Origin: Taeniopygia guttata
Lineage: Eukaryota
Length of the DNA stretch: 64,000 nucleotides
Direction of reading: 5' to 3'
NCBI RefSeq assembly: GCF_048771995.1
Contig: NC_133041.1
Coordinates: 4,727,324 to 4,791,323 of the forward strand
Shown here: positions 16,731 through 40,795 of the stretch, one piece after another
How positions within the stretch are numbered: position 1 is the stretch's first letter
Layout of the letters: every line of letters begins with the position of its first letter
Translations under genes and position numbers: made by a program
Notes under the pieces: generated by a model
Told to the model about the DNA's origin: nothing
Database searches by the model: none
Seen by the model: the letters and a program-made list of their open reading frames with translations, nothing else

Positions 16731-16732
16731 GG

Positions 16733-16813
16733 ATGGCGGCGCCCGGAGCGGGGCCGTGGGACCTGGGGGTGGTCGCGGGGTATTTCCTGCTCGTCATGGC
16801 CGTGGGGATCTGG
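16733..16813 (+). CDS. SLC5A2: SLC5A2 (SGLT2) exon 1; encodes MAAPGAGPWDLGVVAGYFLLVMAVGIW
   Basis: ATG at 16733, donor gtaagg. Matches the start of SGLT2 TM1 (ADILVIAAYFLLVIGVGLW). The exon is embedded in G4-type repeats. Confidence 0.8.
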
Positions 16814-16839
16814 GTAAGGACAAAAAAATAACCCCAAAA

Positions 16840-19800
16840 TCCCAGAAATTCACCCCAAAAAAATCAACCAAAAAAAATCCCAAATTCCCAGAAATTTACC
16901 CCGAAAAAATCAACCAAAAAAAAAAATCCCAAATTCCCAGAAATTCACCCCAAAAAATCAAACAAAAAAATTCCCCAAAATTCCAAAAATTCACCCCGAA
17001 AAAATCCACCCTAAAAATCCCAAAATCCCAGAAATTCACCCCAAAAAAATCAACCAAAAAATTCCCCCAAAATCCCAGAAATTCACCCCAAAAAAATCCA
17101 CCCTAAAAATCCCAAAAACCTGAAATTTCTGCCCAAAAAATTCACCCTGAAAATCTCAAAATCCTGAAATATCACCCCGAAAAAATCAACCAAAAAATTC
17201 CCCAAAATCCCAGAAATTCACCCCAAAAAAATCAACCAAAAAATTCCCCAAAATTCAAAAAATTCACCCCCAAAAAATCAACCAAAAAAATCCCAAATTC
17301 CCAGAAATTCACCCCAAAAAAATCAACTAAAAAATTCCCCCAAAATCCCAGAAATTCATCCCGAAAAAATCAAACAAAAAATTCCCCAAAATCCCAGAAA
17401 TTCACCCCAAAAAATCAACCAAAAAAAAAAATCCCAAAATCCCGGAAATTCACCCCAAAAAAATCAACCAAAAAAATAACCCCAAAATCCCAGAAATTAA
17501 CCCCGAAAATATCCACCCTAAAAATCCCAAAAACCTGAAATTTCTGCCCAAAAAATCCACCCTGAAAATCTCAAAATCCCAAAAATTTGCCCCCAAAAAT
17601 CAACCAAAAGATTCCCCAAAATCCCAGAAATTCACCCAAAAAAAATCAACCCTGAAAATCCCAAATTCCCAGAAAATCACCCCTAAAAAAAAATCCACCC
17701 TAAAAATCCCAAAATCCTGAAAATTCACCCCAAAAAAATCCCCAAATTCCAAAAATTCACCCCAAAAAAATCAACCAAAAAAAAAATCCCAAAATCCTGG
17801 AAATTCACCCCAAAAAAATCAACCAAAAAATTCCCCAAATCCTGAAAATTCACCCAAAAAAATTCCCCAAATTCCAGGAAATCACCCCGAAAAAATCCAC
17901 CCTAAGAATCCCAAAAACCTGAAATTTCTGCCCAAAAAATTCACCCTGAAAATCTAAAAATTCCAAAAATTCACCCCCAAAAATCAACCACAAAATTCCC
18001 CAAAATCCCAGAAATTCACCCCAAAAAAATCAACCAAAAAATTCCCCAAATCCTGAAAATTCACCCCGAAAAAATCAAACAAAAAATTCCCCCAAATCCC
18101 AGAAATTCACCCCAAAAAAATCAACTAAAACAAAAGATCCCAAAATCCCAGAAATTCACCCCAAAAAAATCAACCAAAAAAACCCCAAATTCCCAGAAAA
18201 TCACCCCGAAAAAATTCCACCCTAAAAATCCCAAAAACCTGAAATTTCAGCCCAAAAATTTCAGCCTGAAAATCTCAAAATCCCAGAAATTCACCCTGAA
18301 AAAAATCAACTTTAAAAGTCCCAAAATGCCGGAAAATCAACCCAAAAATATCCATTTTTAAAATCCCCAAATCCTGAAAATTCACCCAGAAAAAAAATCC
18401 ACCCTAAAAATCACAAACTCTCAGAAATTCACCCTAAAAAATCAACTTCAGAAATCCCAAAATCCTGAAAATTCACCCCAAAAAAAATCCACCCTAAAAA
18501 CCCCCAAAATCTCAGAAATTCACCCCAAAATTCCGGAAATTCACCCTCAAAAAAATCCACCCTAAAAATCCCCAAATCCTGGAAAATCAACACAAAAAAT
18601 GTTGCCCGTACTGGTTTGTACTGGTTTGTACTGGTTTATACTGGTTTATACTGGTTTTTACTGGTTTATACTGGTTCATACTGGTTCATACTGGTTTTAC
18701 GGGTATATATTGGTTTTTACTGGTTTATACTGGTTTTTACTGGTTTTTACTGGTTTTTCCGGGTCTGTACTAGTTCATACTGGTTTATACTGGTTTGTAT
18801 CAATCCATACTGGTTCATACTGGTTTATACTGGTTTATACTGGTCCGTACTGGTCCATACTGGTTTATACTGGTTTCTATGGATTTCTACGGCGGTTTTT
18901 TGGGTCCATACTGGTTTATACTGGTTTATACTGGTTTGTATCAATCCCTACTGGTCTGTAGTGGTCCATACTGGTTTATACTGGTTCATACTGGTTTATA
19001 CTGGTTTCTATCAATCCATACTGGTCCTTACTGGTCCTTACTGGTTTTTACTGGTCCCAGTCCCTGCGCCGGCGCGGTGGGCGGAGCCTCTCCGGGTATT
19101 TCCTGGCCGGACGCAGCATGACCTGGGCCCCGGTGAGTTTTTATACTGGTTTGTACTGGTTTGTACTGGTTTGGACTGGTTTGGACTGGTTTGGACTGGT
19201 TTGGACTGGTTTTATACTGGTTTGGACTGGTTTGTACTGGTTTGTACTGGGAGGGACTCAGAGGGAACTGGTTTATACTGGGAATGGAGGGATCACCTTG
19301 GGGTCACTCATTGATCACTCAGGGGTCACTCAGGGTCACTCAGGGTCACTCAGGGTCACTCATTGGTCACTCATTGGTCACTCAGGGTCACTCAGGGGTC
19401 ACTCAGGGGTCACTCAGGGGTCACTCATTGGTCACTCATTGGTCACTCAGGGTCACTCAGGGGTCACTCATTGGTCACTCAGGGGTCACTCAAGGGTCAC
19501 TCATTGGTCACTCAGGGGTCACTCAGGGGTCACTCAGGGGTCACTCAGGGGTCACTCAGCGGTCACTCAGGGGTCACTCAGGGGTCACTCAGGGGTCACT
19601 CATTGGTCACTCAGGGGTCACTCAGGGTCACTCAGGGGTCACTCAGGGGTCACTCAGGGGTCACTCATTGGTCACTCAGGGGTCCCTCAGGGGTCACTCA
19701 GGGGTCACTCAGGGGTCACTCAGGGTCACTCAGGGTCACTCATTGGTCACTCAGGGGTCACTCATTGGTCACTCATTGAGGGTCACTCAGGGTCACTCAG

Positions 19801-20160
19801 GGGTCACTCAGGGTCACTCAGGGTCACTCATTGATCACTCATTGGTCACTCCGTTGGTCACTCAGGGTCACTCAGGGTCACTCAGGGTCACTCAGGGGTC
19901 ACTCAGGGGTCACTCGGGGTCACTCAGGGGTCACTCAGGGGTCACTCGGGGTCACTCAGGGGTCACTCATTGGTCACTCATTGGTCACTCAGGGGTCACT
20001 CAGGGGTCACTCAGGGGTCACTCAGGGGTCACTCATTGGTCACTCATTGGTCACTCAGGGGTCACTCAGGGGTCACTCAGGGTCACTCAGGGGTCACTCA
20101 GGGGTCACTCAGGGGTCACTCAGGGTCACTCAGGGGTCACTCAGGGTCACTCAGGGGTCA
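16840..20160. repeat. SLC5A2 intron 1 and intron 2 satellites: a roughly 44-bp unit aaaaatcaaccaaaaaattccccaaaatcccagaaattcacccc (16840-18600), a 10-bp ctggtttata satellite (18600-19060), and a 10/11-bp ggtcactcagg satellite (19290-20160)
   Basis: Direct periodicity. The ctggtttata family recurs throughout the window in both orientations. Confidence 0.9.
19061..19132 (+). CDS. SLC5A2: SLC5A2 exon 2; encodes [24 protein letters not shown]
   Basis: Acceptor cccag, donor gtgagt. Matches SGLT2 [24 protein letters not shown]. Confidence 0.85.
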
Positions 20161-20173
20161 CTCTCTGTCCCAG

Positions 20174-20278
20174 GTCGGGGCCTCTCTCTTCGCCAGCAAT
20201 ATCGGCTCCGGTCACTTCGTGGGTCTGGCCGGGACGGGCGCCGCGGGCGGCATCGCCGTGGGCGGCTTCGAGTGGAGC
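20174..20278 (+). CDS. SLC5A2: SLC5A2 exon 3; encodes [35 protein letters not shown]
   Basis: Acceptor ctgtcccag, donor gtgagt. This is the SLC5 (sodium:solute symporter) signature region and is near-identical to SGLT1 and SGLT2. Confidence 0.92.
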
Positions 20279-20282
20279 GTGA

Positions 20283-20470
20283 GTCGCGATATATGTCGCG
20301 ATATGCCGCGATATGTCGCGATATCTGCCGCGATATGTCGCGATATGCCGCGATAGGGCGCGATATGTCGCGGTACCGCGACATATCGCGCCCTATCGCG
20401 GCATATCGCGACATATCGCGGCCCCCCCGCTGCTTCTATCGCGAGATTTGCCGTCCTTAAACACGCCCTG
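20283..20470. repeat. Near-perfect palindrome of about 90 bp centred on GGTACC (about 20373-20378) in SLC5A2 intron 3. It is built from CpG-rich 9/10-bp units TGTCGCGATA, which equal the ZBED1/hDREF consensus TGTCG(C/T)GA(C/T)A
   Basis: The left arm gcgatatgccgcgatagggcgcgatatgtcgc is the exact reverse complement of the right arm gcgacatatcgcgccctatcgcggcatatcgc. More TATCGCGATA units follow at 20480-20590. Confidence 0.85.
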
Positions 20471-20600
20471 TTGGTTCTATCGCGATATATCGGCGCCATC
20501 TTGTGGCCGTTCCGCGGTATTGCCTCACCCGGGTTTGGCCACGCCCCTCTATCGCGATATTGGCCACGCCCCTATCGCGACATGGCCCCTCCCCCCACAG

Positions 20601-20660
20601 GGAATGTTCATTGTGCTGTTGCTGGGCTGGGTGTTCGTGCCGATCTACATGAGAGCGGGG
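20601..20660 (+). CDS. SLC5A2: SLC5A2 exon 4; encodes GMFIVLLLGWVFVPIYMRAG
   Basis: Acceptor ccccccacag, donor gtgaga. Matches SGLT2 [20 protein letters not shown]. Confidence 0.9.
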
Positions 20661-21339
20661 GTGAGACTGGTTTATACTGGTTTATACTGGGAGGGACTGG
20701 GAGGGACTGGGAGGGAACTGGGAGGGGACTGGGTTATACTGGTTTATACTGGGAGGGAGCTGGGAGGGAACTGGGTTATACTGGGAGGGACTGGGAGGGA
20801 ACTGGGTTATACTGGGAGGGACTGGGAGGGACTGGGAGGGGACTGGGAATGAACTGGGTTATACTGGTTTATACTGGGAGGGAGCTGGGAGGGAACTGGG
20901 TTATACTGGGAGGGACTGGGAGGGAACTGGTTTATACTGGGACGGACTGGGATGGACTGGGAATGGACTGGGTTATACTCGTTTATACTGGGAGGGACTG
21001 GGAGGGAACTGGGAGGGGACTGGGACAAACTGGGACAAACTGGGAGGGACTGGGAGGGGACTGGGAACGGAGTGGTTTATACTGGTTTATACTGGGAGGG
21101 ACTGGGAGGGAGCTGGGAGGGACTGGGACAAACTGGGACAAACTGGGAGGGACTGGGAATGGACTGGGTTATACTGGTTTTTACTGGGAGGGACTGGGAG
21201 GGGACTGGGACAAACTGGGAGGGACTGGGAATGAACTGAGTTATACTGGTTTATACTGGGAGGGACTGGGCGTGGCTTAGTGAGGGGTGGGCATGTCTCG
21301 GTCCCGGGTGGGCGTGGTCTGAGCGAGGGGCGTGGCCAG

Positions 21340-21599
21340 GTGAGCACCATGCCCGAGTACCTGGGGCGGGTGGGCGTGGTCTGATGGGGTGGGCGTGGTC
21401 TGAGCCCGGTGGGCGTGGCCAGGTGAGCACCATGCCCGAGTACCTGGGGCGGGTGGGCGTGGTCTGAGCCCGGTGGGCGTGGCCAGGTGAGCACCATGCC
21501 CGAGTACCTGGGGCGGGTGGGCGTGGCCCAGGGAAGGGTGGGCGTGGTCTGACCGGTGGGCGTGGCCAGGTGAGCACCATGCCCGAGTACCTGGGGCGG
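21340..21599 (+). other. Four decoy copies of the SLC5A2 exon 5 acceptor plus its first 30 nt (ggccag|GTGAGCACCATGCCCGAGTACCTGGGGCGG|gtgggc) at 21340-21369, 21423-21452, 21487-21516 and 21570-21599, inside a repeat of 60-90 bp immediately upstream of the real exon 5 (21671)
   Basis: Each copy has an AG acceptor, a 30-nt in-frame segment ([10 protein letters not shown]) and a downstream GT. Only the last copy continues into the real exon sequence (cgcttcggggg...). Confidence 0.85.
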
Positions 21600-21670
21600 G
21601 TGGGCGTGTCCTGGGGCGGTGGGCGTGGTCTGAGCGGGGTGGGCGTGGCCTGACCGAGGGGCGTGGCCAG

Positions 21671-21775
21671 GTGAGCACCATGCCCGAGTACCTGGGGCGG
21701 CGCTTCGGGGGCGGCCGGATCCGACTGTACCTGGCGGGGCTGTCCCTGATGCTCTACGTGTGCACCAAGATCTCG
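21671..21775 (+). CDS. SLC5A2: SLC5A2 exon 5; encodes [35 protein letters not shown]
   Basis: Acceptor ggccag, donor gtactg. Matches SGLT2 [35 protein letters not shown]. Four decoy copies of the first 30 nt of this exon lie just upstream (see findings). Confidence 0.9.
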
Positions 21776-23335
21776 GTACTGGGATATACTGGGAGGGACT
21801 GGGAGGGACTGGGAGGGACTGGGAGGGACTGGGAGGGACTGGGAACAAACTGGGTTATACTGGGAGGGACTGGGAATGGAGTGGGAGGGACTGGGAGGGA
21901 CTGGGAGGGACTGGGAATGAACTGGGAGGGACTGGGGGGGGACTGGGTTATACTGGGAGGGACTGGGAGGGACTGGGAATGAACTGGGTTATACTGGGAG
22001 GGACTGGGTTATACTGGGAGGGGACTTGGATAAACTGGGAGGGAATGGGATGTACTGGGAGGGCACTGGGAGGGACTGGGAGGGACTGGGTTATACTGGG
22101 AATGAACTGGGAGGGACTGGGAACAAACTGGGTTATACTGGGGGGGACTGGGAGGGACTGGGAGGGGATTGGAATGAACTGGGTTATACTGGGAGTGACT
22201 GGGAGGGACTGGGTTATACTGGGTTATACTGGGAGGGACTGGGAGGGAACTGGGAGGGACTGGGAGGGAACTGGGTTATACTGGGAGGGACTGGGAGGGA
22301 CTGGGAGGGAACTGGGAGTGGGGAGGAAACTCCAAATTCCACAGGGACCCCCCAGTTCCCTCCCAGTATAACCCAGTTTGTTCCCAGTCCCTCCCAGTTC
22401 CCTCCCAGTCCCTCCCAGTTTGTCCCAGTCAATTCCCAGTTCCCTCCCAGTCTGTTCCAGTGCCTCCCAGTCCATTCCCAGTTTGTCCCAGTTAATCCCA
22501 GTCCCTCTCAGTATAACCCAGTTTATTCCCAGTTCCCTCCCAGTCCCTCCCAGTCTGTCCCAGCATATCCCAGTCCCTCCCAGTTCCCTCCCAATCCATT
22601 CCCAGTTAATCCCAGTTAATCCCACTTCCCTCCCAGTCTCTCCCAGTTTATCCCAGTCCCTCCCAGTTCACTCCCATTTCCCTCCCAGTATAACCCAGTT
22701 TGTTCCCAGTCCTTCCCAGTCCCCTGCCAGCCCCTCCAGTACAAACCAGTATAACCCAGTTTGTTCCCAGTCCCTCCCAGTCTCTCCCAGTTTATCCCAG
22801 TCCCTCCCAGTTCACTCCCATTTCCCTCCCAGTATAACCCAGTTTATTCCCAGTTCCCTCCCAGTCCCTCCCAGTCCCTCCCAGTCCCTCTCAGTCACTC
22901 CCAGTACAAACCAGTCCATTCCCAGTTTATCCCAGTTCCCTCCCAGTCCTTCCCAGTTGCCTCCCAGTACAAACCAGTATAACCTAGTTTGTTCCCACTC
23001 CCTCCCAGTTCATCCCAGTCCCTCCCAGTTTATCCCAGTCAATTCCCCGTTCCCTCCCAGTCTGTTCCAGTGCCTCCCAGTCCATTCCCAGTTAATCCCA
23101 GTCTATCCCAGTCCCTCCCAGTCCCTCCCAGTCCATTCCCAGTATAACCCAGTTTATCCCAGTCTCTCCCAGTCCATTCCCAGTTCCCTCCCAGTCCCTC
23201 CCAGTTCCCTCCCAGTCCCTCCCAGTCCATTCCCAGTTTATCCCAGTCCCTCCCAGTCCATTCCCAGTTTATCCCAGTCTATCCCAGTGCCCCACAGCCC
23301 CTCCCAGTCCGTCCCAGTACAGACCAGTTTGGCAG

Positions 23336-23441
23336 GTGGACATGTACTCGGGGGCGCTGTTCATCCGCGAGGCGCTGGGCTGGGACCTGTACGGCTCCGT
23401 GGGGGCGCTGCTGGCCGTGACCGCGCTCTACACCGTCACTG
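23336..23441 (+). CDS. SLC5A2: SLC5A2 exon 6; encodes [35 protein letters not shown](G)
   Basis: Acceptor tttggcag, donor gtttgt. Matches SGLT2 [36 protein letters not shown]. Confidence 0.9.
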
Positions 23442-25014
23442 GTTTGTACTGGTTTATACTGGTTTGTACTGGTTTGGGCTGGGAGGGGCTGGGAGGGGTC
23501 TGGGAAGGGACTGGGTTGGACTGGGATAAACTGGGAGGGACTGGGAGGGGATGAAAGGGTTAAAAATGGGGAATGATCGGTGCTGGAGGGGATTTTTTGT
23601 ACTGGTTTGTACTGGTTTGTACTGGTTTGGGCAGGGAGGGACTGGGAGGGCTCTGGGAGGGACTGGGAGGGACTGGGAGGGAACTGGGAGGGACTGGGAT
23701 AAACTGGGAGGAAACAGGGAGGGAACTGGGAGGGACTGGGATAAACTGGAAATGGACTGGGAGGGAATTGGGACAAACTGGGAAGGAACTGGGATAAACT
23801 GGGAGGGAACTGGGATGGACTGGGAGGGACTGGGAGGGGATGAAAGGGTTAAAAATGGGGGATAATCGGTGCTGGAGGGGATTTTTTGTACTGGTTTGTA
23901 CTGGTTTTGTACTGGTTTGTACTGGTTTGGGCAGGGAGGGACTGGGATGGACTGGGATATACTGGGATGGACTGGGACAAACTGGGATGGACTGGGAGGG
24001 AACTGGGAGAAACTGGGAGGGAACTGGGAGGGACTGGGAGGGAACTGGGATGGACTGGGAGGGACTGGGAGGAACTGGGAGGGACTGGGAGGGACTGGGA
24101 ACAAACTGGGAAGGAACTGGGAGGGAACTGGGAGGGACTGGGAGGGACTGGGATAAACTGGAAATGGACTGGGAGGGAACTGGGACAAACTGGGAAGGAA
24201 CTGGGATAAACTGGGAGGGAACTGGGATGGACTGGGAGGGGTCTGGGGAGGGACTGGGATGGACTGGGAGGGACTGGGAGGGGATGAAAGGGTTAAAAAT
24301 GGGGGATAATCGGTGCTGGAGGGGATTTTTTTGTACTGGTTTGTACTGGTTTTGTACTGGTTTGTACTGGTTTGGGCAGGGAGGAACTGGGAGGGCTCTG
24401 GGAGGGGACTGGGAGGGCTCTGGGAGGGACTGGGAGGGAACTGGGACAAACTGGGAAGGAACTGGGATAAACTGGGAGGGAACTGGGATGGACTGGGACA
24501 AACTGGGAGGAAACTGGGAGGGAACTGGGAGAAACTGGGAGGGACTGGGAGGGAACTGGGACAAACTGGGAAGGAACTGGGAGGGAACTGGGAGGGACTG
24601 GGACAAACTGGGACAAACTGGGAATGGACTGGGAGCGAACTGGGAGGGACTGGGAAGGAACTGGGAGGAACTGGGACAAACTGGGAGGGAACTGGGATAA
24701 ACTTGGAGGGACTGGGACAAACTGGGTTATACTGGGAGGGAACTGGGAGGGACTGGTTTGGCACAGTGGGCGTGGCTTTATAGGGATGGGCGTGGCTTAA
24801 CTGGGTGTGGACGCTATATTTGCATAATGGGCGTGGCTTAACTGGGTGTGGATGCTGCATTTGCATAATGGGCGTGGCTTAACTGGGTATGGGCGCAATA
24901 TTTGCATAATGGGCGTGGCTTAACCGGGTGCGGACACGATTATTGCACGGTGGGCGTGGTTTAACTGGGTGTGGGCGTGGCCTGAGTGGGTGTGGTCATT
25001 GTGGGCGTGGCCAG

Positions 25015-25095
25015 GCGGGCTGACGGCGCTGATGTTCGCGGACCTGCTGCAGACCCTCATCATCCTCGTGGGCGCCTCCGTGCTGGCCGGCTACG
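25015..25095 (+). CDS. SLC5A2: SLC5A2 exon 7; encodes (G)GLTALMFADLLQTLIILVGASVLAGY
   Basis: Acceptor ggccag, donor GTgggg at 25096. Matches SGLT2 [26 protein letters not shown]. Confidence 0.88.
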
Positions 25096-26938
25096 GTGGG
25101 GGCACTGGTTTATACTGGTTTATACTGGTTATACTGGGTTATACTGGGTTATACTGGGTTATACTGGTTTATACTGGTTTATACTGGTTTATGCTGGGTT
25201 ATACTGGTTTATACTGGTTTATACTGGTTTATACTGGGTTATACTGGTTTATACTGGTTTATACTGGTTTATGCTGGGTTATACTGGTTTATACTGGTTT
25301 ATACTGGTTTATGCTGGGTTATACTGGTTTATACTGGTTTATACTGGTTTATACTGGGTTATACTGGTTTATACTGGGTTATACTGGGTTATACTGGTTC
25401 ATACTGGTTTATACTGGGTTATACTGGTTTATACTGGTTTATACTGGGTTATACTGGTTTATGCTGGGAGGGACTGGGAGGGACTGGGATGGAACTGGGA
25501 GGGAACTGGGAGGGACTGGGAGGGGACTGGGAGGGACTGGGAGGGACTGGGAACCACCACTGTGGTGCCTTACTGGTTTATACTGGGTTATACTGGTTTA
25601 TATTGGTTTATACTGGTCTATACTGGTTTATATTGGTTTTTACTGGTCTATACTGGGAGGGACTGGGAGGGACTGGAATGGAACTGGGAGGGGACTGGGA
25701 GGGACTGGGCAGTACCACTGTGGTGCCTTACTGGTTTATACTGGTCTATACTGGTCTATACTGGTTTATACTGGTTTATACTGGTTTATACTGGTTTATA
25801 TTGGTTCATACTGGTCTATACTGGTCTATACTGGTTTATACCGGTCCGTACTGGTCCCTGCCTACTGGGAGGACACAGTCCCCAAAACTACTGGGCCATA
25901 CTGGTCCATACTGGTCCATACCACTTTATACTGGTTTTTATTGGTTTATACTGGTTCATACTGGTTCATACTGGTCCATACTGGTTTATACTGGTCCATA
26001 CCACTTTATACTGTTTCATACTGGTTCATACTGGTCCATACTGGTTTATACTGGTCCATACTGGTCCAGGACCTTGTAGATAACAAACTGTGAGGAGTCA
26101 CAACCCACCCTCCAAACCCAGCCCAGCCTCCCATACTGGTTTATACTGGTCCATAGTGGTCCATATTAGTTTATACTGGTTCATACTGGTTTATACTGGT
26201 TTATACTGGTCCATACTGGTTTATACTGGTCCATACTGGTCCAGGACCTTGTAGATAACAAACTGGGAGGAGTCACAACCCACTTTCCAACCCTGTCCCT
26301 ATCTCCCATACTGGTTTATACTGGTCCATAGTGATCCATATTGGTTTATACGGTTCATACTGGTCCATACTGGTCCATACTGGTTTTTACTGGTTTATAA
26401 TGGTCCATACTGGTCCATACTGGTCCAGGACCTTGTAGATAACAAACTGGGAGGAGTCACAACCCACTCTCCAAACCCAGCCCAGCCTCCCATACTGGTT
26501 TATACTGGTCCATAGAGGTCCATATTAGTTTATACAGGTTCATACTGGTTCATACTGGTTTATACTGGTTTATAATGGTTTTTACTGGTCCATACTGGTC
26601 CGGGATCTTATAGAGAACTAACTGGGAGGAGTCACAACCCACTCTCCAAACCCAGGCCAGCCTCCCATACTGGTTTATACTGGTCCATAGTGGTCTATAT
26701 TAGTTTATACTGGTTCATACTGGTTCATACTGGTTTATAATGGTCCATACTGGTCCATACTGGTCCAGGACCTTGTAGATAACAAACTGGGAGGAGTCAC
26801 AACCCACCCTCCAAACCCATCCCTACCTCCCATACTGGTTTATACTGGTCCATACTGCTCTATACCACTTTATACTGGTTTTTATTGGTTCATACTGGTT
26901 CATACTGGTTCATACTGGTCCATACTGGTTTCCGGCAG

Positions 26939-27138
26939 CGCTGGGCGCCGTGGGGGGGTACCAGGGCCTGCAGGAGCGCTACCCCCTGGCCCTGGCACCC
27001 AACGCCTCGGGGCCCTGCGGGCGGCCCCGGCCCGACGCCTTCCACCTCCTGCGGCACCCGAGCGGGGGAGACCTGCCCTGGCCGGGACTGGTGCTGGGAC
27101 TGGGAATCATCTCGGGCTGGTACTGGTGCACCGACCAG
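26939..27138 (+). CDS. SLC5A2: SLC5A2 exon 8; encodes [67 protein letters not shown]
   Basis: Acceptor tccggcag, donor gtggga. Matches the SGLT2 extracellular loop and TM (...[41 protein letters not shown]). Three partial 3'-end copies carrying the donor lie in the intron downstream. Confidence 0.9.
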
Positions 27139-27307
27139 GTGGGACTGGGTTATACTGGGAGGGACTGGGAGGGACTGGGAGGGACTGGGAACAAACTGGG
27201 TTATACTGGGAGGGACTGGGAGGGACTGGGAGGGACTGGGAGGGGACTGGAGGGGACTGGGTTATACTGGGAGGGGACTGGGAGGGACTGGGAGGGACTG
27301 GGAGGGA

Positions 27308-28193
27308 CTGGGAATCATCTTGGGCTGGTACTGGTGCACTGACCAGGTGGGACTGGTTTATACTGGGAGGCACTGGGAGGGACTGGGAACAAACTGGGTT
27401 ATACTGGGAGGGACTGGGTTATACTGGGAGTGGACTGGGAGGCACTGGGAGGCACTGGGTTATACTGGAAGGGAACTGGGAAGGAGCACTGGGCTGTAAC
27501 TGGGAGCACTGGGAGTGACTGGGAGCACTGGGAGCACTGGGTTATACTGGGAGCACTGGGTTATACTGGGTTGTACTGGGTTGTACTGGGTTATACTGGG
27601 TTATACTGGGAGCACTGGGACCTGCCCTGGCCCGGGCTGGTGCTGGGACTGGGAATCATCTCGGGCTGGTACTGGTGCACCAACCAGGTGGGACTGGGTT
27701 ATACTGGGAGGCACTGGGAGGGACTGGGAACAAACTAGGTTGTACTGGGAGGGACTGGGAGGGGACTGGAGGGGACTGGGTTATACTGGGAGGGACTGGG
27801 AGGGACTGGGAGGGGACTGGGAGGGACTGGGAGGGACTGGGAGGGACTTGGAGGGGACTGGGAGGCAGTGGGTTATACTGGGTTATACTGGGTTATACTG
27901 GGAGTGGACTGGGAGGCACTGGGTTATACTGGGAGGGGACTGGGAGGCACTGGGTTATACTGGGAGGGGACTGGGAAGGAGCACTGGGCTGTAACTGGGA
28001 GCACTGGGGTGTAACTGGTCTGTAACTGGGAGCACTGGGAGTGACTGGGAGCACAGGGAGCACTGGGTTATACTGGGAGAGACTGGGAGCACTGGGTTAT
28101 ACTGGGTTATACTGGGAGCACTGGGACCTGCCCTGGCCCGGACTGGTGCTGGGGCTGGGAATCATCTCGGGCTGGTACTGGTGCACCGACCAG
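27308..28193 (+). other. Three partial copies of the SLC5A2 exon 8 3' end with an intact donor (…GGAATCATCTCGGGCTGGTACTGGTGCACCGACCAG|gtgggactgg) at about 27308-27346, 27619-27687 and 28125-28193, within intron 8
   Basis: The second and third copies also carry the upstream coding segment GACCTGCCCTGGCC. Confidence 0.85.
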
Positions 28194-30161
28194 GTGGGAC
28201 TGGGTTATACTGGGAGGGACTGGGAGGCACTGGGAGGGGACTGGGAGGGACTAGGAGGGGACTGGGAGGCACTGGGTTATACTGGGTTATACTGGGAGGG
28301 GACTGGGAGGGACTGGGATAGACTGGGAGGGGACTGGGAAGGAGCACTGGGCTGTAACTGGGAGCACTGGGAGTGACTGGGAGCACTGGGTTATACTGGG
28401 AGCACTGGGTTATACTGGGTTATACTGGGAGCACTGGGTTATACTGGGTTATACTGGGAGGGACTGGGAAGGAGCACTGGGCTGTAACTGGGAGCACTGG
28501 TCTCTAACTGGTCCCACCAGTCTCTAACTGGTCTCTAACTGGCCTCTAACTGGTCCCACCAGTGTCTAACTGGTCTCTAACTGGTCTCTAACTGGTCCCA
28601 CCAGTGTCTAACTGGTCTCTAACTGGTCTCTAACTGGTCCCACCTGCTCTAACTGGTCTCTAACTGGTCTCTAACTGGTCCCACCTGCTCTAACTGGTCT
28701 CTAACTGGTCCCACCAGTCTCTAACTGGTATCTAACTGGTCTCTAACTGGTCTCTAACTGGTCTCTAACTGGTCCCACCAGTCTCTAACTGGTTTCTAAC
28801 TGGTCCCTAACTGGTCTGTAACTGGTCCCACCAGTCTCTCACTGGTTTCTAACTGGTCTCTAACTGGTCCCACCAGTCTCTAACTGGTCTCTAACTGGTC
28901 CCACCAGTCCCTAACTGGTCTCTAACTGGTCCCTAACTGGTCTCTAACTGGTCCCTAACTGGTCTCTAACTGGTCCCACCAGTCTCTAACTGGTCTCTAA
29001 CTGGTCCCACCAGTCTCTAACTGGTCCCTAACTGGTCCCTAACTGGTCTCTGACTGGTCCCACCAGTCTCTAACTGGTTTCTAACTGGTTTCCCACCAGT
29101 CTCTAACTGGTCCCTAACTGGTCCCTAACTGGTCTCTGACTGGTCCCACCAGTCTCTAACTGGTCTCTAACTGGTCTCTAACTGGTCCCACCAGTCTCTA
29201 ACTGGTCTCTAACTGGTCTGTAACTGGTCCCACCAGTCTCTAACTGGTCTCTAACTGGTCCCACCAGTCTCTAACTGGTCTCTAACTGGTCTCTAACTGG
29301 TCCCACCAGTCTCTCACTGGTCTCTAACTGGTCCCTAACTGGTCTCTAACTGGTCCCACCAGTCTCTAACTGGTCTCTAACTGGTCCCACCAGTCCCTAA
29401 CTGGTCCCACCAGTCCCTAACTGGTTTCTAACTGGTTTCTAACTGGTCTCTAACTGGTCTGTAACTGGTCCCACCAGTCTCTAACTGGTCCCTAACTGGT
29501 TTCTAACTGGTCTCTAACTGGTCCCACCAGTCTCTAACTGGTCCCTAACTGGTCTGTAACTGGTCCCACCAGTCTCTAACTGGTCCCTAACTGGTTTCTA
29601 ACTGGTCTCTAACTGGTCCCACCAGTGTCTAACTGGTCTCTAACTGGTCTCTAACTGGTCTCTAACTGGTCCTACCAGTCTCTAACTGGTCTCTAACTGG
29701 TCTGTAACTGGTCCCACCAATCTCTAACTGGTCCCACCAGTCTCTAACTGGTCTCTAACTGGTCTGTAACTGGTCCCACCAGTCTCTAACTGGTCTCTAA
29801 CTGGTCTCTAACTGGTCCCACCAGTCCCTAACTGGTCCCTAACTGGTATGTAACTGGTCTGTAACTGGTCCCTAACTGGTCTCTAACTGGTCCCACCAGT
29901 CTCTAACTGGTCTCTAACTGGTCCCTAACTGGTCCCACCAGTCTCTAACTGGTCTCTAACTGGTCTGTAACTGGTCCCACCAGTCTCTAACTGGTCTCTA
30001 ACTGGTCCCACCAGTCTCTAACTGGTCCCACCAGTCTCTAACTGGTCTCTAACTGGTCCCACCAGTCCCTAACTGGTCCCTAACTGGTCTGTAACTGGTC
30101 CCACCAGTCCCTAACTGGTCTCTAACTGGTCCCTAACTGGTCTCTGACTGGTCCCTCCCAG

Positions 30162-30297
30162 GTGATCGTGCAGCGCTGCCTCGCCGGCCGCTCCCTCACG
30201 CACGTCCGCGCCGGCTGCGTCGTCTGCGGCTACCTCAAGGTGCTGCCCATGTTCCTGATGGTGCTGCCCGGCATGGCCGCCCGCGTCCTCTTCCCGG
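30162..30297 (+). CDS. SLC5A2: SLC5A2 exon 9; encodes [45 protein letters not shown]
   Basis: Acceptor tccctcccag, donor GTcaga at 30298. Matches SGLT2 [45 protein letters not shown]. Confidence 0.92.
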
Positions 30298-31243
30298 GTC
30301 AGACCCCTACTGGTTTATACTGGTTTATACTGGTTTATACTGGTTTAGAATGATTTATATTCGTTTAAGGCTCTTATTCAATATGGCGCCCAAAATGGCT
30401 GCCCAAAATGGCTGCCCAAAATGGCTGCCCAAAATGGCTGCCTCCATTGGTGTTTACAAGATGGCTGCCCAAAATGGCTGCCATAGACTGAATCTAAGAT
30501 GGCTGCCCAAGATGGCTCCCCATTGTGGCCACCCATTGGTGCATACTGGTTTTTACTGGTTTATACTGGTTTATACTGGTTTATTTTGAGTTTAAGACAC
30601 TTATTCAATATGGCGCTCAAAATGGCTGCCCAAAATGGCTGCCTCCACTGGTGTTTACAAGATGGCTGCCCAAAATGGCTCCCCACTGCGATCAGCCATT
30701 GGTGCATACTGGTTTTACTGGTTTATACTGGTTTATACTGGTTTATACTGGTTTATACTGGTTTATACTGGTTTATACTGGTTTATACTGGTTTTACTGG
30801 TCCATACTGGTCCATACTGGTTTGGACTGGTCTATACTGGTTTATACTGGTTTATACTGGTCCATACTGGTTTATACTGGTTTATGCTGGTCCGTACTGG
30901 TCCATACTGGTTTATACTAATTTTACTGGTCCATACTGGTTCATACTGGCCCATACTGGCCCATACTGGTCCATACTGGTTTATACTGGTTTATACTGGT
31001 TTTTCTCATCCATACTGGTCCATACTGGTCCATACTGGTCCATACTGGTCCATACTGGTTTATACTGGTTTATGCTGGTCCATACTGGTCCATACTGGTT
31101 TATACTGGTTTTTCTCATCCATACTGGTTTATACTGGTCCATACTGGTCCATACTGGTCCATACTGGTCCATACTGGTCCATACTGGTTTATACTGGTCC
31201 ATACCGGTTTATACTGGTTTATACTGGTTTTTACTGGTCCCAG

Positions 31244-31351
31244 AGGTCGTTGGCTGCGCTGACCCCCAGGGCTGTTCCCGGGCCTGCGGCTCCGCCCTCG
31301 GCTGCTCCAACGTGGCCTATCCCCGGCTGGTGCTCAGCCTGCTGCCCCCCG
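31244..31351 (+). CDS. SLC5A2: SLC5A2 exon 10; encodes EVVGCADPQGCSRACGSALGCSNVAYPRLVLSLLPP(G)
   Basis: Acceptor ggtcccag, donor gtaatt. Matches SGLT2 [37 protein letters not shown]. Three 3'-end-plus-donor copies lie in the downstream intron. Confidence 0.9.
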
Positions 31352-32830
31352 GTAATTAATGACCCCTAATTAGCGCTCATTAATTATTCATGAGCCATTA
31401 TTAGTGATTTATTAGTTATTATTAGCGATTATTAGCGATTATTAGCGATTATCAGTGATTATTAGTGATCCTTAGTACCGACCTATCCCCGGCTGGTGCT
31501 CAGCCTGCTGCCCCCCGGTAATTAATGACCCCTAATTAGCGCTCATTAATTATTCATGAGCCATTATTAGTGATTTATTCGTGATTATTAGCGATTATTA
31601 GTGATTATCAGCGATTATCGGTGATTATTAGTGATCATTAGTACCGACCTATCCCCGGCTGGTGCTCAGCCTGCTGCCCCCCGGTAATTAATTATGCATA
31701 ATTAGCTCTCATTAATTATTCATGAGCGATTATTTGTGATTTATTAGCGATTATTAGTGATTATTAGCAATTATTATTGATAATTAGTGATCATTAGTAC
31801 CGACCTATCCCCAGCTGGTGCTCAGCCTGCTGCCCCCCGGTAATTAATTACCCCTAATTAGTGCTCATTAATTATTCATGAGCGATTATTAGTGATTTAT
31901 TAGCTCCAATTAGCGATTATGAAGTACTATTAGCGGTTATTAGTTCATTAATAATGCTAATTAGTGATTTATTCGTGATTCTTCATTATTAGATCATAAT
32001 TAGTGATTATTAGCGATTAATTACTGATTATTAGCCATCAATAATTAATTTTTACGAATTATCTGTAATTATTACCTTATTTTTGAGGCTATTAATTCGA
32101 ATTTTGGGCTAATAAGGAGCAATTAAAACTAATAATTAATTAGTAATTCTAATTTGGGGGCTAATAACGCTAATTAGGGGCTAATTTGTGCATTATTAGG
32201 ACAATTAATTAGCTATTAATCCTAATTTGGGGTTAATAATTCAATTTTTGGGTCTAATAACTCCATTTTTTGGCCGATTTTCGCAGTTTTTTCACTAATT
32301 TTCACTGGGTTTTCGCCAATAATTAATATTAATTAATAATTAATAATTATTTCGGGCTAATAATTCAAATTTTGGTCCTAATAACTCCATTTTTGGTCCT
32401 AATAATTCGATTTTTGGGCTAATAACTCCATTTTTTGGCCGATTTTCGCCCTTTTTTTGCCGATTTTCGCCATTCTTTCACCATTATTTATTATTACTTA
32501 ATAATTAATTATTAATTTTGGGCTAATAACTCTAATTATGATCCTAATAACTCTAATTATGATCCTAATAATTCAATTTTTGGGTCTAATAATTCCACTT
32601 TTTGGCCGATTTTCGCCATTTTTTCACCAATTTTCACCATTCTTTCACCGCTAATTAATATTAATTACTAATTAATAATTATTTCGGGCTAATGATTCAA
32701 ATTTCAGTGCCAATAACTCCATTTTTGGCCCTAATAATCCCATTTTTGGGGCTAATAACTCCATTTTTTGGCTGATTTTCGCCGTTTTTTCGCCGATTTT
32801 CGCCATTTTTTTTGCTAATTAACGCTAATT
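31352..32830. repeat. SLC5A2 intron 10: a tandem repeat of about 160 bp that includes the exon 10 3' end and its donor (31352-32100), then an AT-rich higher-order repeat of about 190 bp (ggctaataactccattttttggccgattttcgcc..., 32100-32830)
   Basis: Direct periodicity. Confidence 0.85.
31479..31839 (+). other. Three copies of the SLC5A2 exon 10 3' end plus donor (CGACCTATCCCCGGCTGGTGCTCAGCCTGCTGCCCCCCG|gtaattaa) at about 31479-31517, 31643-31683 and 31801-31839, inside the 160-bp repeat of intron 10
   Basis: The real exon 10 ends at 31351 with the same 39 nt and donor. Confidence 0.85.
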
Positions 32831-32840
32831 AATTAATTAG

Positions 32841-32991
32841 GGCTGCGCGGGCTGATGCTGGCGGTGGTGCTGGCCGCGCTGATGTCGTCGCTGGCCTCCA
32901 TCTTCGCCAGCTCGGCCGCGCTCTTCACGCTCGACGTCTACCGGCGGCTGCGGCCGCGGGCGGGGCCACGACACCTCCTGGTGGCCGGCAG
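32841..32991 (+). CDS. SLC5A2: SLC5A2 exon 11; encodes (G)[49 protein letters not shown](R)
   Basis: Acceptor aattag, donor GTgggc at 32992. RLRPRAGPR matches the SGLT2-specific RLRPRAGDR, whereas SGLT1 has KVRKRASEK. Confidence 0.92.
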
Positions 32992-33868
32992 GTGGGCACG
33001 GCTGGGGGCACCTGGGGGCACCTGGGGGCACCTGGGATACACCTGGGCACACCTGGGATACACCTGGGCATGGTTAAACACACGTGGGCACACCTGAAAT
33101 ACACCTGAGATACACCTGGGGGCACCTGGGGGTACCTAAAATACACCTGGGCACACCTGAGATACACCTGAGATACACCTGGGCACAGCTGGGGGCACCT
33201 AAAATACACCTGGGCATGGCTGGGGGCACCTGGGATACACCTGGGCACACCTGGACACACCTGGGCACACCTGGGCATGGTTAAACACACCTGAGATACA
33301 CCTGGGCACACCTGGGATAGACCTGGGCACACCTGGGGCACACCTGGGCACACCTAAAACACACCTGGGCACACCTGGGCACAGCTGGGCACACCTGAGA
33401 CACACCTGGGATAGACCTGGGCACACCTGGGGGATATTTTGGGCACACCTGGGCGCACCTGGGCATGGCCAGGGGCACCTGGGGGCATGCCTGGGCACAC
33501 CTAAAATACACCTGGGCACACCTGGGCACGCCTGGGGCACACCTGGGCACGGCTGAGTGCACCTGGGGGTACATGGAGCACACCTGGGGCACACCTGGGC
33601 ACACCTGGGGCACACCTGGGCACACCTGGGCACACCTGGGGCACACCTGGGCACACCTGGGCACACCTGGGCATGGTTTAACACACCTGGGGCACACCTG
33701 GGCACACCTGGGATAGACCTGGGCATGGTTTAACACACCTGGGGCACACCTGGGACACACCTGGGCACACCTGGGGGATATTTTGGGCACACCTGGGCAC
33801 ACCTGGGGGATATTTTGGGCACACCTGGGCGCACCTGGGCACACAGGTGACCCCTCCCCTGCCCGCAG

Positions 33869-33940
33869 GCTGTGGGTGGTGGCCATGGTGGGGCTGAGCC
33901 TGGCCTGGCTGCCGGTGCTGCGGGCGGCGCGGGGGGCGCA
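33869..33940 (+). other. Truncated upstream duplicate of SLC5A2 exon 12 (acceptor plus the first about 72 nt: [23 protein letters not shown]) that runs straight into the acacctgggc satellite
   Basis: Identical to 34848-34919, including the cccctgcccgcag acceptor. No in-frame donor follows. Confidence 0.8.
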
Positions 33941-34847
33941 CCTGGGCACACCTGGGCACACCTGGGCACACCTACAATACACCTGGGCACACCTGGGCAC
34001 ACCTGGGCACACCTGGGCACACCTGGGCACACCTGGGCATGGCCGGGGGCACCTGGGGCACACCTGGGCATGGTTAAACACACCTGGGATACACCTGAGA
34101 TACACCTGGGCACAGCTGGGCACACAGGTGACCTCAGGTGGCCCCGGGTGATCTCAGGTGACCTCAAGGGACCCAAATTTGGGGTTCTCAGGTGTCCAAA
34201 AACCCAAAATTTGAGCTGCAGGTGACCTTGAAGGACTCAAATTTTTGGGTTCTGGAGGTCCTGGAGATCCCAAATTTTTTGGGGGTGATCCCGGCTGACC
34301 CCGGGTGACCCCAGGTGAGCTCAGGTGTCCAAGTGACCTTGAAGGACCCAAATTTGGGTCATTCCAAGTGTCCAAAAACCCCAAATTTGAGATCCTGGTG
34401 ACCAAATTTTGGGTTTTTGACCTCAAAATGACCCCGAATTTTTTGGGGGTGACCCCGGCTGACCCTGGTTGACGTCAGGTGACCCCGGCTGACCTCAGGT
34501 GTCCAAGTGACCTTGAAGGACCCAAAATTGGGTCATTCCAAGTGGCCAAAAACCCAAAATTTGAGCTGCAGGAGACCATGAAGGACCCAAATTTTGGGTT
34601 TTTGACCTCCAAACGACCCCGAATTTTTTGGGGGTGACCCCGGCTGACCCCGGGTGACCCCAGGTGACCTCGGGTATCCAAGTGACCTTGAAGGACCCAA
34701 ATTTGAGCTTCTCAAGTGTCCAAAAACCCCAAAATTTCAGCTCCGGGTGACCTCAAACTCCCCAAATTTTGGGTTTTTGACCTCAAAATGACCCCGAATT
34801 TTTTGGGGGTGACCCCGTCTGACCCCGCTGACCTCCCCTGCCCGCAG

Positions 34848-35016
34848 GCTGTGGGTGGTGGCCATGGTGGGGCTGAGCCTGGCCTGGCTGCCGGTGCTGC
34901 GGGCGGCGCGGGGGGCGCAGCTCTTCGATTACCTGCAGGCGCTGTCCTCCTACCTGGCCCCGCCCGTGGCCGCCGTCTTCTGCCTGGCCGTGCTCGTGCC
35001 CCGCGTCAACGAGCCC
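34848..35016 (+). CDS. SLC5A2: SLC5A2 exon 12; encodes (R)[56 protein letters not shown]
   Basis: Acceptor cccgcag, donor gtgagc. Matches SGLT2 [57 protein letters not shown] truncated upstream duplicate sits at 33869-33940. Confidence 0.9.
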
Positions 35017-36516
35017 GTGAGCGGCACACCTGGGCACACCTGGGCACACCTGGGGGCACCTGGGGGGGAGATTGGCACACCTGGGGTGCACCTGGGCACA
35101 CCTGGGGCACCTGGGGGCACACCTGGGCACACCTGGGCACACCTGGGCACACCTGGGGGGGAGATGGGCACACCTGGGGGGGTTTGGGAGGGGTTTAAAG
35201 GGGGTTTGGGGCACACCTGGGCACACCTGGGGCACCTGGAGGGGTTTAAAGCACAGCTGGGCACACCTCAGGGTGTTTAAAGAGGGTTTGAGGTTCACCT
35301 GGGGGCACCTGGGCACACCTGGGGGAGAGATGGGCACACCTGGGCACACCTGGAGGGGTTAAAACAGGTTTGGGAGGCACCTGGGGGCACCTGGGGGCAC
35401 CTGGGGGGGAGATTGGCACACCTGGGCACACCTGGGGGGGTTTGGGAGGGGTGTAAAGTGGGTTTGGGGCTCACCTGGGCACACCTGGGGGCACCTGGGC
35501 ACACCTGGGGCGCACCTGGGCACACCTGGGCACACCTGGGGGATATTTTGGGCACACCTGGGCACACCTGGGTACACCTGGGTACACCTGGGGGGGTTTA
35601 AAGGGGGTTTGGCGCACACCTGGGCACACCTGGGCACACCTGGGTGGGGTTAAAATCGGTTGGGGGGACACCTGGGGGCACCTGGGTAGGAGATTGGCAC
35701 ACCTGGGCCCACAGGGGGGCACCTGGAGGGGTTTAAAGGGGGTTTGGGGCACACCTGGGCACACCTGGGCACACCTGGGTGGGGTTTGGGAGGCACCTGG
35801 GGGCACCTGGGCACACCTGGGGGGCACTGGAACCCATCTGGGGGGTGGGGGAGGGGAAAAAAGGGGGTTTGGGAGGAGCAATTTGGGGCTCCAGGTGGCC
35901 CCAAAACCCCAAATTTTGACCCCAAAACCCCCAAATTTTGACCTAAAACCCCAAATTCTGTCCCCAAAACCCCCAAATTTCATCTCCACGTGACCCCAAA
36001 CCCCCAAATTTGGGGTTTGTGAACATCCACGTGACCCCAAAACCCCCAAATTTCAGCTCCAAATGAGCCCAAAACCCCCAAATTTTGACCCCAAAACTCT
36101 CAAATTTTCACCCAAAATGCCCCAAATTTCATCTCCAAGTGATCCCAAAACCCCAAATTTGGGGCTCCTGAACACCCAAGTGACCCCAAGAACCCCAAAT
36201 TTCACCTCCAAATGACCCCAAAACCCCCGAATTTCGGCTCTTTTCGCCCCCAAAACACCCAAATTTTGACCCAAAACCCCCAAATTTTGACCCAAGCCCC
36301 CCAAATTTCATCTCCACGTGACCCCAAAACACCAAATTTGGGGTTCCTGAGCATCCAGGTGACCTCAAATCCCTCCAGTTTCAGATCCAAATGGCCTCAG
36401 AACCCCCAAATTTTGAGGCAAAAATCCCGATTTTTGACCCAAAAACCCCAAATTTTGCCCCCAAAATCCCAAAATTTTTGGGTTTTTTTCCCAAATTTGT
36501 GTTTTTTCTCCCCGAG

Positions 36517-36586
36517 GGCGCGTTCTGGGGGCTGCTGGAGGGTCTGGGGCTGGGCCTGGCCCGGCTGATCCCCGAATTTGGGGCTC
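36517..36586 (+). other. Partial upstream duplicate of the SLC5A2 exon 13 5' end with its acceptor (ccccgag|GGCGCGTTCTGGGGGCTGCTGGAGGGTCTGGGGCTGGGCCTGGCCCGGCTGATCCCCGAATT)
   Basis: Compare with the real exon at 37151-37220. The copy diverges into satellite after CCCGAATTT. Confidence 0.8.
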
Positions 36587-37150
36587 CCGAACATCCCGGG
36601 GACCCCAAAACCCCCAAATTTCACCTTCAAATGACCCCAAAACCTCCAAATTTCGACTCTTTTGGCCCCCAAAACCCCCAAGTTTTGACCCAAAACCCCC
36701 CAAATTTTGACCCAAAATGCCCCAAATTTCATCTCCACATGACCCCAAAACCCCAAATTTGGGGTTCCTGAGCATCCAGGTGATCCCCCCCCAAAAAGAA
36801 TTCAGGTCCAAATGATCTCAGGACCCCCAAATTTTGACCCCAAAAACCCCAAATTTTGATCATAATCCATCAAATTTTGACCCCAAAACCCCAAATTTTG
36901 ACCCAAAAACCCCAAATTTTCACCCTAAATTCCCCAAATTTCATCTCCACGTGACCCCAAAACCCCAAATTTGGGGTTCCTGAGCATCCAGGTGACCCCA
37001 AAACCCCCAAATTTGTGCTCCAAATGACCTCAGAACCCTCAAAATTTGACGCAAAAATCACGAATTTTGACCCCAAAACGCCAAATTTTGCTCCCAAAAC
37101 CCCGAATTTTTGGGGTTTTTTTTCCCAAATTTGTGTTTTTTCTCCCCGAG

Positions 37151-37366
37151 GGCGCCTTCTGGGGGCTGCTGGGGGGTCTGGGGCTGGGCCTGGCCCGGCT
37201 GATCCCCGAATTCCTGCTGGGCTCCGGCTCCTGCGGCGCCCCCGGGCGCTGCCCGGCGCTGCTCTGCGGGATGCACTACCTGCACTTCGCCGCGCTGCTC
37301 TTCCTCCTCACCGCCGCCATCGTCATCGCCGTGTCCTGCTGCCACCCGCCCATCCCCGAGGTCCAC
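37151..37366 (+). CDS. SLC5A2: SLC5A2 exon 13; encodes [72 protein letters not shown]
   Basis: Acceptor tctccccgag, donor gtgagt. Matches SGLT2 [51 protein letters not shown]...PIPRKH. A partial 5' copy lies at 36517-36586, and three 3'-end-plus-donor copies lie downstream. Confidence 0.9.
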
Positions 37367-40695: not shown

Positions 40696-40795
40696 CTGCA
40701 CAGGTTGGTGTTCAGCCTCCGGAACAGCCGCGAGCCCCGAATCGACCTCGACGCGCCCAAAGAGCCGCCCCAAAATTTGGGGGTCGAACTCGGGG
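40696..40795 (+). CDS. SLC5A2: SLC5A2 exon 14; encodes LHRLVFSLRNSREPRIDLDAPKEPPQNLGVELG
   Basis: Acceptor attccag, donor GTgaga at 40796. LHRLVFSLRNS(K/R)EERxDLDA matches SGLT2 exactly. The 3' boundary is the only in-phase donor before the exon 15 acceptor, so it is less certain. The predicted cytoplasmic loop is shorter than the human one. Confidence 0.7.

Follow-up and report, generated by a model that had tools for sequence, protein, structure and literature searches.

The stretch of zebra finch (Taeniopygia guttata) DNA analysed here is 64,000 nucleotides (nt) long and covers positions 4,727,324 to 4,791,323 of contig NC_133041.1 in assembly GCF_048771995.1; we call it the window, and positions are counted from its first letter unless another species is named. 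It carries an SLC5A2-like gene, which encodes a sodium/glucose cotransporter of the SGLT2 type, and the subject of this study is a cluster of four copies of the first 30 nt of exon 5 of this gene, lying in intron 4 upstream of the real exon. An earlier reading of the letters, referred to below as the original prediction, had described these copies as amplified pseudo-micro-exons. The features are collected in Table 1.

The translation of the 15-exon model is identical to the RefSeq protein XP_072792561.1 ('sodium/glucose cotransporter 2-like [Taeniopygia guttata]') and shares 99% identity with the older zebra finch model XP_041575530.1. The top database matches to this protein are all SGLT2 or SGLT2-like, with the domain PF00474 (SSF-family transporter), and the translation of exon 5 has residues 122-156 of human SGLT2 as its best match in the PDB (7vsi, E = 1.5e-9). 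A UVB_sens (RUSF1-type) gene adjoins SLC5A2 at the orthologous bird and macaque loci, in agreement with the neighbourhood of human SLC5A2. The exons were first located with a human SGLT2 sequence, which served as a lead only, and the boundaries were then set by eye and by script; the gene identity, judged from database proteins, is that of the SLC5A2 (SGLT2) orthologue. A pseudogene is ruled out by the intact open reading frame (ORF) of 620 amino acids (aa), by GT-AG at every intron and by the identity to the RefSeq protein. The SGLT2 match and this same identity also confirm the real exon 5 boundary on which the original prediction depended, with the exons numbered as in birds. The coding sequence has a GC content of 72%, rising to 92% at third codon positions. 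Tandem Repeats Finder (TRF) covers 92% of the SLC5A2 introns taken together vs 11% of the exons, and 81% of the whole window.

Table 1. Positions of the SLC5A2 features in the window (a slash marks the border between exon and intron)
Feature	Position	Strand	Description
SLC5A2-like (SGLT2) gene	16733..41911	+	15 exons, all introns GT-AG, ORF 620 aa
Exon 4	20601..20660	+	60 nt, ends ...IYMRAG, donor GGG/GTGAGA
Intron 4	20661..21670	+	1010 nt, 100% tandem repeat (TRF)
Intron 4, 5' part	20661..21267	+	10-bp ACTGGGAGGG/ACTGGTTTAT-type minisatellite
Intron 4, 3' part	21268..21670	+	GGGCGTG-anchored minisatellite reaching the splice acceptor
Stutter copy 1	21328..21371	+	GGGCGTGGCCAG + exon 5 nt 1-30 (core 21340-21369) + GT
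Stutter copy 2	21411..21454	+	core 21423-21452; within exact 64-nt x2.2 repeat 21387-21526
Stutter copy 3	21475..21518	+	core 21487-21516
Stutter copy 4	21558..21601	+	core 21570-21599; CTGAC branch-point-like motif spaced as at the real acceptor
Real acceptor context and exon 5	21659..21775	+	acceptor context 21659-21670 (GGGCGTGGCCAG); exon 5 21671-21775, 105 nt, phase 0-0, donor TCG/GTACTG; core 21671-21700
Intron 4 copies		+	4 copies of exon 5 nt 1-30
Intron 8 copies	27304..28193	+	3 copies of exon 8 3' edge (43-69 nt), each with donor
Intron 10 copies	31482..31839	+	3 copies of exon 10 last 36 nt, each with donor
Intron 11 copy	33869..33940	+	1 copy of exon 12 nt 1-72, full acceptor context
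Intron 12 copy	36517..36578	+	1 copy of exon 13 nt 1-62, full acceptor context
Intron 13 copies	38111..39308	+	3 copies of exon 13 last 78 nt, each with donor

Copies of the exon 5 start in intron 4

The 30-nt string GTGAGCACCATGCCCGAGTACCTGGGGCGG has five exact occurrences on the plus strand. The last of these cores is the real start of exon 5 and the other four lie upstream of it in intron 4, as originally claimed. All five are directly preceded by the 12 nt GGGCGTGGCCAG, and copy 1 and the real site have 16 upstream nt in common. After the core, the four upstream copies continue with GTGGGCGTG, whose first bases give the donor-like GTGGGC, vs CGCTTCGGG at the fifth, where the exon continues. 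Sharing every base between -12 and +30, the five acceptors are spread over 331 bp, which bears out the claim of five identical acceptors within 350 bp. A chance origin of the repeated 12-mer GGGCGTGGCCAG is excluded, because it is found 6 times vs 0.00 expected from dinucleotide-preserving shuffles; the one occurrence beyond these five sites is the real exon 7 acceptor. On the array itself, TRF detects periods of 83, 147 and 64 nt, the last of them at 100% identity.

The two parts of intron 4 are built from different repeats. The ACTGGGAGGG/ACTGGTTTAT family of its 5' part fills most introns of SLC5A2. The 3' part has eleven heterogeneous short units of 18-21 nt, whose pairwise identity averages 0.76; interspersed with them are four 44-nt units, identical to one another and each composed of GGGCGTGGCCAG (12 nt, including the AG), 30 exon nt and GT, with 0 differences among the copied blocks. 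All four long units share the junction ...CTGGGGCGG/GTGGGCGTG, in which the G-rich end of the exon part meets the G-rich start of a repeat unit, so that the GT of each pseudo-donor is the first two bases of the following minisatellite unit. The four copies stand in differing spacer contexts.

Eel, Xenopus, turtle and every bird examined possess intron 4, but macaque lacks it and has one undivided 165-nt exon in place of bird exons 4 and 5; 'exon 5' is thus bird numbering (the segments compared with window 20601-21775 are macaque 3945-4106, Xenopus 4690-4932, with an intron of 78 nt, and eel 1850-3069). Because of this distribution, the comparison points to an ancestral intron 4 and to its loss in the mammalian lineage, human exon 4, which is undivided, corresponding to bird exons 4 and 5. 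A new gain of the intron by tandem duplication, considered since intron 4 and exon 5 both start with GTGAG, is ruled out by its presence in eel, Xenopus, turtle and birds.

Exon-edge copies across the gene and across birds

When each exon was compared with the window by blastn to list partial exon copies, 15 copies belonging to six families were found in six introns (Table 1). Every one of them begins or stops exactly at an exon border, and always in the intron that adjoins this border. The original prediction saw in intron 4 a dedicated amplification of micro-exons; this part of it does not hold, and the four copies are instead one of six exon-edge families in a gene subject to an already described, chromosome-wide instability.

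The comparison of copy number across species that the original prediction had suggested gives five cores in the zebra finch vs one in eight other species: the exon 5 start is single-copy (at up to 5 mismatches) in Poecile, Haemorhous, Sylvia, Anomalospiza (Viduidae), Cariama, Struthio and turtle, and also at the macaque locus. Viduidae is the sister family of Estrildidae. Because the copies are absent from all eight species, Viduidae included, they are by this comparison recent and lineage specific, having arisen in the zebra finch lineage; within the zebra finch gene they belong to a gene-wide copying of exon edges, which has left the coding exon intact. That the copies match perfectly, whereas the short units around them average only 76% identity, indicates a young age or continuing homogenisation against the exon.

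The repeat next to the acceptor is more widely distributed. Poecile, Haemorhous, Sylvia and Anomalospiza have a GGGCGTG(G/T)-type array at the corresponding position; no such array was found at the intron 4 acceptor of Cariama, ostrich and turtle, where the acceptors are ordinary and pyrimidine-rich. Other passerines also have exon-edge copies in SLC5A2. The house finch (Haemorhous; 12101-13041, 15022-15293) has six copies of the exon 5 3' edge and two of exon 6, plus others; the garden warbler (Sylvia; 9333-9945) has four copies of the 3' part of exon 6; and the chickadee (Poecile; 9335-10422, 16037-16836) has copies of exons 8 and 11. In the white wagtail (Motacilla alba; 27331-28262) at least four 66-nt copies of the exon 5 3' edge are in frame and are each flanked by AG and GT. 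A protein-level screen, which misses very short copies, found no exon-edge copies in SLC5A2 of Cariama, ostrich, turtle, macaque, Xenopus and eel. Considering that each passerine has its own set at different exons or edges, exon-edge copying is a process that recurs independently in passerines, with different exons and edges affected in each species.

This phenomenon has been defined in chicken as 'sequence stuttering' or 'exon stuttering', in dot-chromosome genes whose introns are full of locally expanded repeats (Hron et al. 2026, Genome Biol Evol, PMC12954441). In that study, more than 90% of the source sequences lie at most 1 nt from an exon border and the splice site is copied along with them; the exon part measures 20-187 nt (median 36) and is present in 1-44 copies (median 4), and intron lengths polymorphic among individuals are one of the three main features. 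Among the 115 stuttering genes of the supplementary list is chicken SLC5A2, which lies on dot chromosome 38. The authors mention 'potential alternatively spliced transcripts' but did not analyse splicing, and the zebra finch was not screened (PMC12954441). In the zebra finch, minisatellites make up more than 70% of dot-chromosome introns, their unit lengths being multiples of 10-11 bp, and G-quadruplex (G4) motifs are enriched on the coding strand (zebra finch telomere-to-telomere (T2T) paper and companion).

The four copies agree with this description in several respects. They lie at an exon border and carry 12-16 nt of upstream intron including the AG; they are found in the adjacent intron, at most 331 nt upstream of the exon; their length of 30 nt falls within the range of 20-187 nt and their number equals the median of 4. 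The host intron is tandem repeat throughout and the coding exon is intact, as the match of the 620-aa ORF to XP_072792561.1 attests. The gene is GC-rich and syntenic with the chicken dot-chromosome gene, and XP_072792561.1 is placed on a 5.74-Mb record, near the zebra finch dot-chromosome size of 5.99 +/- 1.57 Mb, by which the gene may lie on a dot chromosome. The differences from the chicken case are that the affected site is the intron 4/exon 5 edge of the zebra finch gene, that the copies are lineage specific, and that each of them is a complete in-frame AG...GT unit opening with a strong donor motif. By these characters the four copies are an example of exon stuttering, which has already been described, and not a new kind of element. 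We consider it probable that they arose as by-products when tandem repeats became locally unstable in a zebra finch gene on a dot chromosome.

Two better known systems are comparable only in part. Tandem exon duplications and arrays of mutually exclusive exons likewise repeat exonic sequence with its splice signals within a gene; here, however, the repeated piece is a 30-nt edge fragment, its second boundary is a repeat junction, and it is not conserved. Human pathogenic or cryptic pseudo-exons, which arise by point mutation or from transposable elements, resemble the copies in being intronic AG...GT units that may be included or act as decoys, their inclusion or extension usually leading to a frameshift or a premature termination codon. 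The zebra finch copies differ in that an authentic acceptor and exon start have been copied perfectly, four times.

The array or its copy number could also be a product of wrong assembly or of errors in the consensus, the region being difficult to sequence, and we regard such an artefact as highly unlikely. It would find some grounds in the dropout of high-fidelity (HiFi) read coverage in dot-chromosome euchromatin, which is correlated with minisatellites and non-B DNA (T2T paper and companion), and in the potential G4 motifs that lie on the coding strand over the core end and the pseudo-donor GT in three of the four copies (copies 1, 3 and 4: 21363-21389, 21510-21533 and 21593-21616; four runs of at least three G, with loops of up to 12 nt). 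However, the array is about 400 bp long, far below the length of long reads, which would make collapse or expansion unlikely, and a simple duplication error is not expected to place the copies in different spacer contexts. Furthermore, the same class of structure is present in independent assemblies of four other passerines, and in chicken the general structure of the polymorphic tandem repeats in PHF8 introns was verified by raw nanopore reads (PMC12954441).

Origin of the array and its splice signals

We infer the following mutational mechanism and splicing outcome for the stuttering of exon 5. The G-rich GGGCGTG minisatellite that touches the acceptor, comparable to the array in other passerines, would have been the starting substrate. 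In the zebra finch lineage, an out-of-register event (replication slippage, template switching, unequal exchange or gene conversion) would have fused the exon at position 30 (...CTGGGGCGG) with the beginning of a unit lying upstream (GT GGGCGTGG), presumably through the G-rich microhomology GGGGCGG / GGGCGTGG. The product would be a 44-nt block made of 12 nt of intron with the AG, 30 nt of exon and the GT, and amplification in the midst of the older short units would then have raised it to four copies. Because all four copies share the junction CGG/GTGGGCGTG, a single founding junction followed by amplification is the probable course, and its latest step may be the exact duplication of 64 nt in which copies 2 and 3 are found. 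The copies would have no function of their own: the AG would have arrived with the copied acceptor and the GT from the next unit, and the in-frame length would be incidental.

The splice signals of the copies were judged against the real sites of the same gene. The composition originally described, with an AG, 30 in-frame nt and a donor-like GTGGGC in each copy, is found as stated. In its intronic hexamer the pseudo-donor CGG/GTGGGC equals the real donor of exon 11, CAG/GTGGGC, and the real donors of exons 7 and 8, GTGGGG and GTGGGA, are close to it; the donor-like sequence is therefore credible by comparison with these sites. A pyrimidine tract is absent at all pseudo-acceptors as well as at the real one. 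Around -18, copies 1-3 have CTGAG where copy 4 and the real site have CTGAC.

From these signals, two kinds of aberrant product can be predicted. First, inclusion of one unit would insert 10 aa in frame, as originally proposed, leaving an intact predicted ORF of 630 aa with a 10-aa duplication in the hydrophilic stretch between two hydrophobic segments. Second, use of an upstream acceptor with read-through to the real donor would lengthen the exon to 206-436 nt, and a stop would be met after 4-17 codons. In the productive mRNA, we propose, the most 3' acceptor is used, as in the RefSeq model, because it alone precedes an exon of normal size (105 nt), which would permit exon definition. A 30-nt unit would be too short for efficient exon definition, and transcripts with exons extended from an upstream acceptor would meet stops and undergo nonsense-mediated decay. 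The copies would then be neutral or slightly costly decoys.

A further feature, beyond the original prediction, allows another reading. All four copies and the real exon 5 open with CAG/GTGAGC, a near-consensus donor, and in the introns of SLC5A2 the motif GGTRAG is confined to the four copies and one occurrence in intron 11. The array might accordingly be tolerated since self-correcting recursive or nested splicing through these AG/GTGAGC sites would still yield normal mRNA. In the recursive route, splicing of exon 4 (...GGG) to a copy would regenerate GGG/GTGAGC, which is near the original donor GGG/GTGAGA and could re-splice onward; in the nested route, the GTGAGC of one copy would be joined to the AG of a later copy within the intron, and whole repeat units would be removed. 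This reading we hold to be very unlikely. In vertebrates, recursive sites are known chiefly from introns of great length, and intron 4 measures 1 kb.

A known system close to this reading is the recursive splicing exon (RS-exon); many constitutive exons open with a motif like a 5' splice site, and the exon junction complex (EJC) suppresses re-splicing at regenerated donors (Blazquez et al. 2018, PMC6224609). The copies share the architecture of the cryptic RS-exons of that study, with a 3' splice site AG abutting the 5' splice site-like GTGAGC, the weaker donor GTGGGC 30 nt on, and a 5' splice site regenerated by ligation to the upstream exon. Measured against the RS consensus YnNCAG/GTRAGT, CAG/GTGAGC and the donor at +30 are present and the upstream pyrimidine tract is absent, which counts against recursive use of the copies. 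The copies also differ from RS-exons in the shortness of the intron and in their lack of conservation, and in that the GTGAGC motif would here be an accident of the Val-Ser codons (GTG AGC) at the exon start; the argument for them is one of sequence logic alone. In addition, the real exon 5 has the same regenerated donor, so that re-splicing there would skip the exon, and repression by the EJC would equally block correction at the copies. It is likewise very improbable that the array is a splice-choice substrate with built-in repair, in which each copy would provide an acceptor and, one base later, a donor, a splice to any of the five sites, or from one of them to another, would take out whole units and restore an identical junction, and all choices would funnel to the correct mRNA. 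If this were true, exon edges starting with GTRAG would tolerate stuttering, which would link stutter tolerance to the logic of recursive splicing.

The Ser codon at the exon 5 start varies among passerines: it is AGC in Taeniopygia, Haemorhous and Anomalospiza and TCC in Poecile (5910) and Sylvia (6721), a two-base difference. Only the AGC form makes the strong donor-like GTGAGC at the exon 5 start (window 21671-21676).

The copies could also be functional alternative micro-exons, regulated inclusion of one or more 30-nt units lengthening the hydrophilic stretch of SGLT2 by 10-aa repeats. Each unit keeps the frame and lies between AG and GT, inclusion would leave the ORF intact, and donors of the GTGGGC type are in use elsewhere in the gene. 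Indeed, the RefSeq model XP_037982407.1 of Motacilla alba joins three of the analogous 66-nt copies of the exon 5 edge as exons (HWERRLYLALLSLGLYVSTKIS x3); this model, however, is chimeric, combining SRCAP with SLC5A2, and was predicted from an assembly with gaps. The absence of the zebra finch copies from all eight other species examined, including Viduidae, means that they are not conserved. The 10-aa insert was not found in either of the two independent zebra finch RefSeq models, XP_072792561.1 and XP_041575530.1. A search of a 5.8-billion-protein collection with the peptide of one included micro-exon, which was of low sensitivity and is a weak negative, returned no insert-bearing protein, with only 8 candidates and a single match (Anomalospiza) without the insert. 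The insertion would also interrupt the motif TMPEYL.(K/R)RFGG and is likely harmful because this motif is conserved from eel to human. A regulated micro-exon function is thus extremely unlikely in our judgement.

Several points nevertheless weigh against reading the copies as mere by-products excluded from the mRNA. The copy number comes from one assembly haplotype, and the splicing outcome is deduced from the DNA letters alone. Youth alone need not explain the perfect identity of the blocks, which selection, or gene conversion still going on from the selected exon, could also have produced. The exon 5 start family is the only one of the six in the gene to form complete in-frame AG...GT units; the hexamer of its pseudo-donors is really used elsewhere in the gene, and the real exon 5 donor TCG/GTACTG is no closer to the consensus than the pseudo-donor. 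The real acceptor has no pyrimidine tract to distinguish it. Given the complete units, the used hexamer and the weak real donor, the exclusion of the copies from the mRNA is not guaranteed by the sequence.

Surrounding features and significance

Several other introns and one exon of SLC5A2 have repeat structures of their own. Just 5' of exon 3 (20000-20163) there is an 11-bp TCAGGGGTCAC repeat in 15 copies, and intron 3 (20279-20600) is a palindromic CpG-rich minisatellite, with ATATGTCGCG x8 followed by the inverted CGCGACATAT x4. Intron 5 (21776-23335) consists of a ACTGGGAGGG-type array of about 540 nt followed by its reverse complement over about 980 nt. Its ends, 21778-21900 by the exon 5 donor and 23206-23328 by the exon 6 acceptor, are 80% complementary across 123 nt, and because of this the pre-mRNA could fold so that this donor and this acceptor come together. 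The C-rich half of intron 5 holds 78 Y5(N)CAG acceptor-like motifs; decoy acceptors are therefore a general feature of SLC5A2. The real acceptor of exon 7 (25003-25014) is GGGCGTGGCCAG, as at exon 5, with no pyrimidine tract at either, and upstream of it (24760-25014) lies a separate GGGCGTGGCTTAAC-type repeat of about 50 nt. In exon 15 (window ~41790-41830), GGVAS(E)/GGVAS(A) is a duplication that keeps the frame and is based on GGGGGCGTGGCCTCGG x2; the motif GGGCGTGGCC, common to the intronic minisatellite, is here found within coding sequence, and similar sequence is present in other passerine proteins.

Outside SLC5A2, the flanks of the neighbouring genes are 70-85% tandem repeat. A Pfam scan of the non-repetitive ORFs in the flanks gave as its sole result a sub-threshold match to the SGF29 tudor domain at 5623-5781 on the plus strand. 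Two ORFs on the minus strand, 55667-55825 and 58505-58684, presumably belong to a myosin regulatory light chain of the MYLPF type, which they resemble.

The array reveals no new kind of element and no new function of SGLT2. Its interest lies elsewhere. Exon stuttering, which has so far been analysed in chicken only, is extended to a songbird, and within one gene it is recurrent and lineage specific across passerines. Gene prediction can be led astray by exon-edge copies, of which the Motacilla alba model XP_037982407.1 is an example, and such copies mark regions in which copy number is probably variable between individuals. With five acceptors identical from -12 to +30, no pyrimidine tract, a pseudo-donor hexamer that is in use in the same gene and a weak true donor, the zebra finch array offers a clean natural test of splice-site choice.

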